A stretch of 64,000 nt of DNA from Thermoanaerobaculia bacterium (GTDB lineage Bacteria > Acidobacteriota > Thermoanaerobaculia > Multivoradales > Multivoraceae): positions 157,688 through 221,687 of the forward strand of contig JAJEBV010000015.1 in assembly GCA_022822365.1 (NCBI GenBank), read 5' to 3'. The translations under genes and the position numbers were made by a program. Of the stretch, positions 33,140 to 34,978 are shown in pieces; within the stretch, counting starts at the first letter, position 1; each line of letters starts with the position of its first letter. A model generated the notes under the pieces. That model saw nothing but the letters and a program-made list of their open reading frames with translations. It searched no databases and had not been told where the DNA came from.

Positions 33140-34879
33140 TCATCGTGCGAACGGCCGGTACTCAAGCAAGACGGACCGTCCGATGATGTCGGCGATCGTC
33201 ACCGAGAGTTCCCGGCCATGGGCGTCCGTCAGCCGAATCGGCTTGCCCGGCCGGAAGGGTACGGGCTGCTGGCGGCCCTCGTCGATGGCGATGTTGTCCG
33301 CGTAGAGGTATGTCCGGTCGGACGTGTCCCGGATCGGGTTCAGCCGTCCGCGAAGATCGGGAAGGTGTCCGGTGCCCTTGGAGAAGATGGCCGCGCCCCC
33401 GGACGCAAGCGGGTCGAGTTCCAGCAGGAGACCGCTCTGGCTCGGCCTCCACTCCCGTTCAAGTCCGGCGGTGTGGCCCGGCCCGGCGGCGTAGACGGTC
33501 ATCGGAAGGTGCGTCGTGTAGAGGTCCAGAGCCGCCTCGCCGGCCTCGTCGGTGGTTGCCCGCACCCAGGTCTTGTTCGGGAACAGCGCGAGAACCTCGA
33601 TGCCGGGCAGAGGCTCGCCACCGGAGTGCACCGTGACCGTGGCGTCCGCCGGAACAAGCTCCAGCTTGGCGGCGGGAATGCAGAGCACCAGACTGGACTC
33701 GTCGACGACCTCGTACTGCGGCACGATGCCGGTGGCTTCCCGGGTCTCCTCGCGGATGATCGTTACGCCGTCTCCTCGACGCTCCATCAGGTATCTGCGG
33801 TGGTCCGCTCCCGCCACGCTGCCAACGGGAATGCGTCCGAACACTGAAGCGATCACTTCGTTGCGAGTTGCCTGGCTGGCCTCCATGCCTTCGATGGTCA
33901 TGCCGTTCGGAAGCTGGCCCGGCGAATCGATCTCAAGGCGGTCCTTGAACAGGGACAGCCTGATCCGTCGGGAGGACATGGAGTAGTCGCGGTGTGCCAC
34001 GGCGTTGACCACCGCCTCGAAGACCGCGGCCTTGCTGTACTGGGGAACGTCCTCGCGCTCGGGTGTCTTGCGCGCCGCGACCCGCATGTTGCGAACGACG
34101 AACTTGACCGCGTCCGCGATCTGGACGGCTAGCGGACCGACGATCTCCTGGGCGTCCAACTGGCCCGACGCCCGATCGAGGCCGCGGTAGTGGGTCGCCA
34201 CGATGGCCGCTTGAGGAATGAAGTCCTGCGGTGAAGGAGCACAGAGAAGCACGCCGGCGACGGTCGCCCGATCCACGCCGGCTTCGTCCGGCGCCAGGAG
34301 GCGGAGGTTCATCAATCCACGGCGTGGATCGGTCGCCCCAGCCACACTGAGCAGCGGCTCCCATAGACGCTCGCTGAGCGTCTCGAAGCCCGTCTCGGGC
34401 ACGACCTGATTGTCGAAGCCGAGGTAGCGGCCATGCGCGCGCTGCTGCGCCAGCCTCAACCGTTCGTCGCCGCGCAGGCGGCGCTTCGTCCCGCCAACCC
34501 GGATGAAGGCTCGCCCATCACGCTCGTGCACGGCACGGCCCCGCGGCACCTCAACGAGCACTAAAGCTCGGCCGTCGAGTTCCCGGTGATGCACGTCGAT
34601 GCGCAGGGGCGGCTCGATGGCGTCGGTGCTCACCTCCACCAGCATGTGGTCGAGAGCCGCCATCTGTTCGCGCGACATGCCCTGGAGGGTTCCGTCGTCC
34701 TCGACCCCACAAAGCAACACGCCCCCACCCGCGTTGGCGAAAGCGCCGAGTTCGTCGGCGAAGTCGTCTCGCCGCGGGCTCGTCGGTGTGTTGCCGCTGA
34801 ACTCGACCCGCTTGAACTCCCAGCGACTGTCCTCGCCCAACGTCAGTTGTCGGCGAATGTCCTCGTCCCGAATCGTCAT
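33140..34879 (-). CDS. Schlafen/AlbA_2 + HATPase_c_4 (RecG C-terminal-like) protein with an extra C-terminal beta-sandwich domain
   Basis: GEDSRWEFK, AFANAGGG.LL.GVED (AlbA_2); EAVVNAVAHRDY, LEIDSPG, MERRGDG (HATPase_c_4); C-terminal TVTVH...TTDEAGEA (Ig/carboxypeptidase-regulatory-like). Confidence 0.88.
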   Translation of the reverse strand: MTIRDEDIRRQLTLGEDSRWEFKRVEFSGNTPTSPRRDDFADELGAFANAGGGVLLCGVEDDGTLQGMSREQMAALDHMLVEVSTDAIEPPLRIDVHHRELDGRALVLVEVPRGRAVHERDGRAFIRVGGTKRRLRGDERLRLAQQRAHGRYLGFDNQVVPETGFETLSERLWEPLLSVAGATDPRRGLMNLRLLAPDEAGVDRATVAGVLLCAPSPQDFIPQAAIVATHYRGLDRASGQLDAQEIVGPLAVQIADAVKFVVRNMRVAARKTPEREDVPQYSKAAVFEAVVNAVAHRDYSMSSRRIRLSLFKDRLEIDSPGQLPNGMTIEGMEASQATRNEVIASVFGRIPVGSVAGADHRRYLMERRGDGVTIIREETREATGIVPQYEVVDESSLVLCIPAAKLELVPADATVTVHSGGEPLPGIEVLALFPNKTWVRATTDEAGEAALDLYTTHLPMTVYAAGPGHTAGLEREWRPSQSGLLLELDPLASGGAAIFSKGTGHLPDLRGRLNPIRDTSDRTYLYADNIAIDEGRQQPVPFRPGKPIRLTDAHGRELSVTIADIIGRSVLLEYRPFAR

Positions 34880-34886
34880 CGGCTCC

Positions 34887-34978
34887 TGGCGGAGAGGGAG
34901 GGATTCGAACCCTCGGTCCAGGTCACCCCGGACAACTGCTTAGCAGGCAGCCCTGTTCGACCACTCCAGCACCTCTCC
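34887..34978 (-). tRNA. tRNA-Ser(GCU)
   Basis: GGAGAGG/CCTCTCC acceptor stem, CT-GCT-AA loop, long variable arm, GTTCGAATC, encoded CCA. Confidence 0.97.

Follow-up and report, generated by a model that had tools for sequence, protein, structure and literature searches.

A tRNA and an mRNA can share one transcript in bacteria, as they do in the tRNA-tufB operon of Escherichia coli. In the ‘tRNA punctuation’ of mitochondria, RNase P and RNase Z release mRNAs that abut on tRNAs (PMC5716156). In the E. coli prr locus, a type I restriction-modification (R-M) enzyme silences an anticodon nuclease, which a phage anti-restriction factor activates (PMC2610378). For prokaryotic Schlafens (pSlfns) the nuclease motif has been defined as Ex4(E/D)xK; according to a published survey (PMC13056530, Nat Microbiol 2026), their commonest architecture is Slfn-HisKinase, at 34%, and in RorSlfn5, of the pSlfn5 class, a C-terminal immunoglobulin (Ig)-like domain senses the T5 tail assembly chaperone and thereby triggers cleavage of the tRNA anticodon arm. 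Here we describe a Schlafen-type gene that begins 7 nt after the CCA end of a tRNA-Ser(GCU) gene, in a 64-kb stretch of DNA from a Thermoanaerobaculia bacterium (the window; GenBank assembly GCA_022822365.1). We favour, with a confidence slightly above even, the reading that this is an orphan, horizontally acquired member of an R-M-associated family of Schlafen-HATPases, which carries a sensor-like module, was inserted as a bare open reading frame (ORF) at the CCA, is expressed by read-through, and probably serves as a latent RNase or tRNase in defence.

On the minus strand, the sequence runs from ...CTCCGCCA at the tRNA end through GGAGCCG into ATGACGATT, which opens ATGACG. The elements are as follows.

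34887..34978, minus strand: tRNA-Ser(GCU), type II with an encoded CCA, found by ARAGORN and by Rfam (RF00005, 57.9 bits); the same in the strain contigs L082-L087.
34880..34886, minus strand: the 7-nt spacer GGAGCCG, read from the sequence, which is the left end of the insert and is identical in three assemblies.
33140..34879, minus strand: Schlafen-type ORF of 579 amino acids (aa), with SLFN_AlbA_2, HATPase_c_4 and a C-terminal double beta-sandwich; ratio of nonsynonymous to synonymous substitution rates (dN/dS) 0.06-0.15.
34475..34834, minus strand: residues 16-135, SLFN_AlbA_2 (Pfam PF04326, E 8.9e-18, above the gathering score).
33701..33967, minus strand: residues 305-393, HATPase_c_4, a GHKL-like ATPase domain (‘HisKinase’; Pfam PF13749, E 3.3e-18).
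33143..33667, minus strand: residues 405-579, C-terminal module, all-beta and built of two tandem beta-sandwiches in an AlphaFold2 model (predicted local distance difference test, pLDDT, 90.6).

The spacer holds GGAG, a Shine-Dalgarno (SD)-like motif, 3 nt before the ATG at 34879, and in many homologues elsewhere GGAG likewise stands 6-9 nt upstream of the start. This ATG is the conserved start of the family: the alignment of homologues begins at residue 1. An earlier note on this DNA, made from the letters alone, had described the run of tRNA, CCA, GGAGCCG and ATG with its 7-nt gap, and a protein composed of AlbA_2, HATPase_c_4 and an extra C-terminal domain; ARAGORN, Rfam and the sequence itself bear out the layout, and Pfam the domains. 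Folding of the RNA across the junction gave no structure beyond chance (z = 0.62), and an Rfam scan of the whole window found three tRNAs and no other RNA. Such close abutment of tRNA and ORF is uncommon. As a control we used 42 other metagenome contigs with the identical 35-nt tRNA 3' end, which yielded no further alleles of this lineage; at most 3 of them have an ORF of at least 60 aa that starts no more than 7 nt after the CCA.

Because the T-arm and acceptor sequence of this tRNA is common to many organisms (the same 35-mer occurs in those 42 unrelated contigs), a chimeric join at the tRNA had to be weighed, as the earlier note had also cautioned. Three independent sponge-metagenome assemblies, each from a different sample (the window, or L001, and the contigs L082 and L083), agree base for base at the junction. 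Contig depth is equal on both sides of the junction in three DNA runs, and the GC content of the gene is 0.67 (0.82 at third codon positions) against 0.69 in the flanks. To its right the gene is flanked by host DNA, and since in sister strains this flank adjoins the same tRNA directly, a chimeric join is excluded. Mis-assembly is thus ruled out by host DNA on both sides, equal depth, three agreeing assemblies and matched GC, and the junction is genuine.

The N-terminal part of the protein has the features of a Schlafen nuclease. The motif Ex4(E/D)xK is present as E16-D-S-R-W-E21-F-K23, and the domain also contains the segment D61-D62-G63. Among 56 homologous sequences E16, K23, D61 and D62 are invariant and E21 is at least 90% conserved; in the ATPase region N292, H296-Y299, S319-G321 and R339-N340 are invariant in the same set. 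Foldseek matched the fold with probability 0.99-1.0 to SLFN11 (7zep), SLFN12 (7lre), SLFN13 (5yd0), SLFN14 (9nyy) and the SAMD9 tRNase (9o0d), and over residues 1 to about 430 the closest structure is DIP2311 (3lmm; E 9e-10). The full-length AlphaFold2 model is confident in the N-terminal domain (pLDDT >90) and at the C-terminus, and poor between them. Pfam gave no match for residues ~400-579 and no helix-turn-helix (HTH) match, and no NCBIfam model matches the 579-aa protein. By its motif and domains, the protein is a pSlfn of the Slfn-HATPase (‘HisKinase’) class with an extra C-terminal module.

The C-terminal module was predicted by the earlier note to be a beta-sandwich of carboxypeptidase-regulatory-like character, and both predictions held: the model is all-beta, and a search of solved structures (Foldseek against PDB) placed the first sandwich close to the transthyretin-like domain of carboxypeptidase D (5aq0_A, TM 0.80) and to SusC NTE domains. 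The matches of the module also include 9hfj (TMt 0.66); the second sandwich has no good match among solved structures, and a Foldseek search against viral structures returned generic beta-sandwich matches only (tail fibres, CarboxypepD_reg). An exhaustive, profile-free search with the 180-aa C-terminus found the module in 553 clusters at 50% identity. We surveyed the domains of 64 longer representatives. CarboxypepD_reg was significant in 24 of the 64 (Pfam), and some proteins carry two or three copies of the module. It stands C-terminal to HATPase_c_4 with or without SLFN, and to TIR, SEFIR, caspase, trypsin-like protease, PIN, protein kinase, AAA_14-DUF4143 and M48 peptidase domains; the 64 proteins gave 12 TIR_2 and 5 TIR matches, and 6 of them have AAA_14-DUF4143. 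One module behind so many death or effector domains would be the signature of a shared sensor in conflict systems, and we regard the C-terminal module as a putative sensor or ligand-binding module. The earlier note had further likened the protein to the Schlafens with an Ig-like sensor (pSlfn5), and this likeness failed, as HATPase_c_4 sits between the nuclease and the sandwich.

The module also occurs in a cultured actinomycete, Nocardia bovistercoris, in a 695-aa ‘IPT/TIG domain-containing protein’ (WP_196147925.1), and it is therefore not confined to sponge symbionts. Within the window, an AAA_14-DUF4143 gene lies upstream of the atp operon, at about 41714-42793 on the plus strand; some AAA_14-DUF4143 proteins elsewhere carry the same module.

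The insertion can be followed by comparison with close strains. The source DNA occurs in sponge metagenomes, and one relative of its AtpC bears the label ‘Acidobacteria bacterium’. AtpC of the strains L084-L087 is identical among them and 98% identical to that of the window. The order on the minus strand of the window is atpH-A-G-D-C, a 254-nt spacer, tRNA-Ser, the Schlafen-like ORF, a truncated FtsX/MacB permease gene, a second permease gene and an HlyD-type adaptor gene, with a tannase gene convergent to the Schlafen, permease and adaptor genes. The uninterrupted site is seen in L084 and L085, where the CCA is followed by an A and then by the ATG of a membrane AraC-type ORF, an ABC ATPase gene, two genes for 387-aa permeases and an adaptor gene. 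In a deletion allele (L086 and L087) the CCA adjoins the 3' end of the tannase gene directly, and the whole operon is absent. A blastn map shows that window positions 35232..34887 match L084 up to the CCA; the next 1,798 nt (34886..33089), made up of the 7 nt, the ORF and a 51-nt trailer, are absent from L084 and take the place of 16 nt there, including the ATG of the AraC-type ORF. The features on either side of the gene are these.

34979..35232, minus strand: atpC-tRNA spacer, 254 nt, ~95% conserved among strains and presumed to be the site of the tRNA promoter.
33089..33139, minus strand: 51-nt trailer, the right end of the insert, absent from L084 and L085.
33016..33088, minus strand: 73-nt 5' remnant of the AraC-type ORF, 100% identical to L084:6058-6130, its first 16 nt lost.
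32107..33004, minus strand: FtsX1, a 5'-truncated FtsX/MacB-type permease gene (partial MacB_PCD and FtsX in Pfam; blastn map).

Because the 73-nt remnant of the displaced ORF is still there, the Schlafen gene is the later arrival, a newcomer at a site from which it displaced the AraC-type ORF. Beyond the remnant, a deletion of ~2.1 kb relative to L084:6131-8248 has removed the rest of the AraC-type ORF, the ABC ATPase gene and the 5' end of FtsX1. The joint of this deletion holds an 11-nt filler (33005-33015); the second permease and the HlyD-type adaptor are kept and the exporter is broken. In the three Schlafen-bearing strains homology stops right at the stop codon and differing DNA follows, which in L083 resembles a defence island. 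Three or more allelic states have their breakpoint precisely at the CCA, and the tRNA-Ser 3' end is therefore a rearrangement hotspot, in keeping with the general role of tRNA 3' ends as integration sites to which the earlier note had pointed; the comparison of relatives that it advised showed the uninterrupted site in sister strains and an insertion of the ORF only. The locus is still in flux, as the strain in sponge sample S3 (DNA run X3) has an extra 2.1-kb deletion that joins 29944 to 32045 at depth 61.8.

How the segment arrived was approached by elimination. The 579-aa ORF is the sole gene of the 1,798-nt insert, which has no recombinase. The last 25 nt of the tRNA (at most 3 mismatches) recur within the 64 kb in the tRNA-Gln gene only, the last 12 nt are not in excess, and no repeats were found within 31500-36500. 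The earlier note had seen neither integrase nor att repeat, and these searches agree with it; an integrase-mediated tRNA island is rejected on the same grounds. An integron cassette was rejected as well, given that the downstream 90 nt are unrelated among contexts and the trailer has no matches (attC secondary structure was not modelled). The trailer shows no significant similarity to the DNA downstream of other family loci. Nor is it significantly similar to DUF4411, whose gene comes after the ORF in R-M operons: the best local score was 14, and shuffled sequences reached 16.

Two further features of the alleles deserve mention. In L084 and L085 the AraC-type ORF (MNPHLLYAVIDGAHIAFLLV...) starts 1 nt after the CCA, at L084:6043 and L085:5577, without an SD; its mRNA would be leaderless if tRNA 3' processing freed it. 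L083 holds a partial tRNA-Ser copy at 5941-6002 (85% identity; the 5' half and 23 nt upstream), 5 kb downstream of the real tRNA, with P4 cII-like, Peptidase_M78/HTH, Beta_protein and type ISP R-M genes as neighbours, in what looks like a defence island.

Expression was examined in a metatranscriptome of a sponge sample (X13), which contains RNA contigs over parts of the ORF; silence of the gene, which would have spoken against the earlier note, is not what was found. One contig of 445 nt, which shares the single-nucleotide polymorphisms of the DNA from the same sample, corresponds to 34474..34915 and thus comprises 29 nt of the tRNA, the spacer and the 5' end of the ORF. RNA and DNA contigs alike stop at 34914/34915, where the de Bruijn graph branches within the conserved T-arm; this stop does not mark the end of a transcript. 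Within a span of 19 kb, the atp operon and the ORF have RNA contigs and 39.6-44 kb has none, at a DNA depth of ~70; because these 4.4 kb at full DNA depth give no RNA contig, plain DNA carry-over does not account for the RNA signal. Thus the gene is transcribed, and RNA runs unbroken over the tRNA-ORF junction, which supports the co-transcription with the tRNA that had been proposed. With only 7 nt between CCA and ATG there is, as the earlier note had stated, no room for the gene's own promoter, and read-through from the tRNA is therefore the most likely mode of transcription. Since a different ORF starts 1 nt after the CCA in the sister allele, this suggests that the lineage routinely expresses whatever follows tRNA-Ser by read-through.

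Independent expression has to be set against read-through. The gene could be transcribed from a promoter within the tRNA gene, giving a weak or leaderless transcript, or it could be a poorly expressed passenger for which the RNA contig reflects DNA carry-over; taking the question of expression alone, we find this doubtful. It would fit with a single RNA contig that has neither strand nor end data and whose depth of 13 resembles that of neighbouring genes (4-43), and with a consensus sigma-70 scan of 32800-35700 that found no promoter, also upstream of the tRNA. Against it stand the unbroken contig that links the T-arm to the ORF, the lack of any RNA contig over 4.4 kb of nearby DNA at full depth, the gap of 7 nt between CCA and ATG, and dN/dS of 0.06-0.15 among the tRNA-linked copies, which shows that the gene is used. 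A terminator scan over the same interval found one terminator-like site inside the ORF, within chance expectation. For read-through, the presumed promoter site is the atpC-tRNA spacer, where TAGACT, a -10-like hexamer, lies 7-12 nt before the 5' end of tRNA-Ser. Antisense within this spacer, at 35123-35224 on the plus strand, there is a 33-aa ORF (MTDTRGIERQLYEIARQLSALRAVLERIERRLR) with the motif GGAGGGAAGG upstream, also called in sister strains (L082:7658-7759 and L086:5558-5659).

A scan of species-representative genomes found full-length relatives at 80 loci, with 62-86% aa identity, in metagenome-assembled genomes (MAGs) labelled as at least 8 phyla; taken together, the relatives span 62-94% identity. 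The labels include Alpha- and Gammaproteobacteria, Acidobacteriota (Bryobacterales, Vicinamibacteria, Aminicenantes), Gemmatimonadota, Binatia, Rhodothermales, Thermodesulfobacteriota and a cyanobacterium, and sponge-symbiont MAGs are recognisable among many of the relatives. DNA similarity between loci is confined to the ORF, beginning at the start codon and ending at the stop. Flank GC ranges from 0.43 to 0.70 across loci, and the GC of the gene tracks it (r = 0.82). Between genomes of differently labelled phyla dS is 0.7-1.2 with dN/dS of 0.06-0.15, a range that is given for the tRNA-linked copies as well. This combination of ORF-bounded similarity, low dS and low dN/dS means that the gene moved across phyla well after these had diverged and then came under strong purifying selection. 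Some homologues are less regular: in four loci (L026, L039, L052 and L067) the homologous ORF has one extra in-frame stop, and these may be pseudogenes or reflect the chosen start coordinate. ARAGORN also called a tRNA-Ser(gct) within a homologue's coding sequence (L046:4853-4946, Gemmatimonadaceae MAG), probably a false positive.

The same relatives bear on a closer bond between the two genes, in which tRNA-Ser(GCU) would be substrate, decoy or antidote of the Schlafen, with co-transcription serving to fix their ratio. Three strains share the identical junction, purifying selection acts on the gene at this site, one RNA contig spans both genes, and human SLFN11 and SLFN13 preferentially cut type II tRNAs (Ser, Leu). 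However, a scan of 60 related loci found no tRNA immediately upstream of the gene in any of them; the tRNA link is therefore a local insertion and not a family trait, and the functional tie of the protein to tRNA genes that could be read into the earlier note is not borne out, a family-wide association being rejected on this count. Sister strains have an unrelated AraC-type ORF or nothing after the CCA, so that the site is special and not the gene, and the recurrent partner of the family is type I R-M. We consider such functional coupling highly improbable.

That partnership is apparent from gene order: a quarter or more of the related loci carry hsdS immediately upstream. In at least 19 of 79 loci the stop codon of HsdS (C-terminus LLPKLMSGEIRL...) overlaps the start codon of the gene, and in surveys of neighbours Methylase_S preceded the gene at 15 loci and HSDR_N followed it at 9. 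Two operons were checked in full: hsdM-hsdS-[gene]-hsdR in L013, and hsdM-nucleotidyltransferase pair-hsdS-[gene]-DUF4411-hsdR in L025. In the E. coli prr locus, prrC likewise lies between hsdS and hsdR. By analogy with prr, this placement suggests that the relatives may be latent nucleases that back up restriction. In many R-M-embedded loci (L002, L012, L025, L042 and others) the start of a DUF4411 (PIN-like) gene overlaps the Schlafen stop as ATGA; in several of them this gene seems to be truncated or frameshifted.

A non-immune role would accommodate part of these observations. The protein could be a nucleic-acid-binding regulator or a housekeeping factor, for example one that answers a ligand of the sponge host or habitat through its beta-sandwich. 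Relatives are annotated ‘transcriptional regulator’ or ‘putative DNA binding domain-containing protein’, the usual COG2865 label, and the best N-terminal structural match, DIP2311, is an uncharacterised AlbA_2-HATPase_c_4 protein. Strong, uniform conservation, low dN/dS and host-adjusted GC resemble a housekeeping or niche gene rather than one in an arms race, and the R-M neighbour is missing in more than half of the loci. Yet the winged HTH that ends COG2865-type proteins is replaced here by beta-sandwiches, the Ex4ExK nuclease triad is invariant or nearly so, the module is common to TIR, caspase, PIN and trypsin effectors, and translational coupling within type I R-M operons is seen in many relatives. 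We judge a non-immune role unlikely.

The reading that we favour can be stated as a sequence of events. The family has spread horizontally over many phyla, with many sponge symbionts among the hosts. In one sponge-associated lineage of Acidobacteria a 1.8-kb, ORF-only segment entered exactly after the CCA of tRNA-Ser(GCU), displacing the start codon of the gene for a membrane AraC-type regulator, and a neighbouring 2.1-kb deletion then broke the ABC transporter that lies downstream. Transcription of the orphan most likely comes about by read-through from the tRNA, whose 3' processing would free an mRNA with a very short, SD-bearing leader. Its product may be a latent RNase, probably a tRNase, that halts translation when the ATPase, the C-terminal module or both sense a cue of infection, and the outcome would be abortive infection or growth arrest. 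The Ex4ExK motif and the relatives in type I R-M operons make a defence role plausible.

Several observations weigh against this reading. In PMC13056530, the tested Slfn-HisKinase representatives gave no defence against the phage panel used. PADLOC returned partial matches only, to Aga/pAgo-associated models. The main difficulty is that all parts of the protein, the supposed sensor included, are conserved to a similar degree (mean pairwise identity 69-80% per domain), which is unusual for the sensing of fast-evolving phage proteins and suggests a conserved trigger. The window copy adjoins no R-M system, its neighbours being the tRNA and a broken ABC transporter. The 3 nt between GGAG and ATG at the tRNA-Ser copy are below the usual spacing. 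Finally, the RNA support is a single Logan contig without strand information or 5' ends, and the contig may owe something to DNA carry-over or to a promoter within the tRNA gene.

A wider proposal, which we advance tentatively and hold to be improbable as a whole, is that the tRNA-Ser(GCU) 3' end acts as a promoter-less expression dock, that an integrase-free mechanism is aimed at the CCA phosphodiester, and that the cargo is a PrrC-like guard of R-M systems with a common sensor. Whatever is docked, the Schlafen at +8 or the AraC-type ORF at +2, would be transcribed from the tRNA promoter and freed leaderless or nearly so, as a bacterial counterpart of mitochondrial tRNA punctuation. The guard would be exchanged across phyla largely within sponge microbiomes, and its sensor would also serve TIR, caspase, trypsin and PIN effectors.

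The protein family itself is of a known kind, the prokaryotic Schlafens. What appears to be new is the C-terminal module and its sharing, the PrrC-like placement in R-M operons, the spread across phyla largely in sponge symbionts and the ORF-exact docking at a tRNA; a literature search, with the architecture tables of PMC13056530 outside its scope, found no paper on these points. If the favoured reading is true, the commonest and functionally unproven class of Schlafens gains a well-defined, strongly selected sub-family, whose natural partner (type I R-M) and candidate sensor module make the trigger testable. The module on TIR, caspase, trypsin, PIN and kinase proteins would point to a shared, conserved cue of infection or stress, and the family would be a clear marker of gene flow across phyla, largely in sponge microbiomes. 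The locus would be a natural bacterial case in which tRNA transcription and 3' processing drive or shape the expression of an abutting protein gene, with natural allelic controls in the same population (the uninterrupted site, the replaced ORF and the deletion).

Set beside the described systems, the protein is closest to Slfn-HisKinase in having SLFN_AlbA_2 with Ex4(E/D)xK followed by HATPase_c_4, and relatives associated with defence genes; it differs in the extra tandem beta-sandwich, where Slfn-HisKinase has nothing or an HTH, and so goes beyond the definition given in PMC13056530. The same source describes RorSlfn5, which we borrow as a working model because it too joins a Schlafen nuclease and a C-terminal beta-sandwich on one polypeptide. 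RorSlfn5, however, is a protein of ~43 kDa that lacks an ATPase and in which a single Ig-like (integrin/complement-like) domain follows the nuclease directly, whereas, compared by architecture, a linker of ~270 aa and HATPase_c_4 intervene here, the sandwich is transthyretin/CarboxypepD_reg-like and a second beta domain follows; the sensor is divergent in pSlfn5 and the module highly conserved here. DIP2311 (3lmm) and COG2865 proteins share the two N-terminal domains (AlbA_2-HATPase_c_4) but end in a winged-helix DNA-binding C-terminus, where residues 405-579 are all-beta in our protein. The likeness to PrrC and RloC (PMC2610378) is that in L013 and L025 the gene lies between hsdS and hsdR, often translationally coupled. 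PrrC is made of an ABC-ATPase N-domain and its own anticodon nuclease domain, a fold unrelated to SLFN_AlbA_2 with HATPase_c_4, so that the analogy is one of placement only; the window copy has lost the R-M context. In contrast to tRNA-targeted islands, the locus lacks both an integrase and a second copy of the tRNA 3' segment, and the unit is a single ORF of 1.8 kb; the insertion nevertheless lies exactly at the tRNA 3' end, and the downstream genes vary among close strains, being defence-island-like in L083. Gaps of 1-7 nt, lastly, are typical of mitochondria and not of bacterial chromosomes, but as in tRNA punctuation, the ORF follows its tRNA immediately, the gap leaves no space for a promoter and RNA is continuous over the junction.

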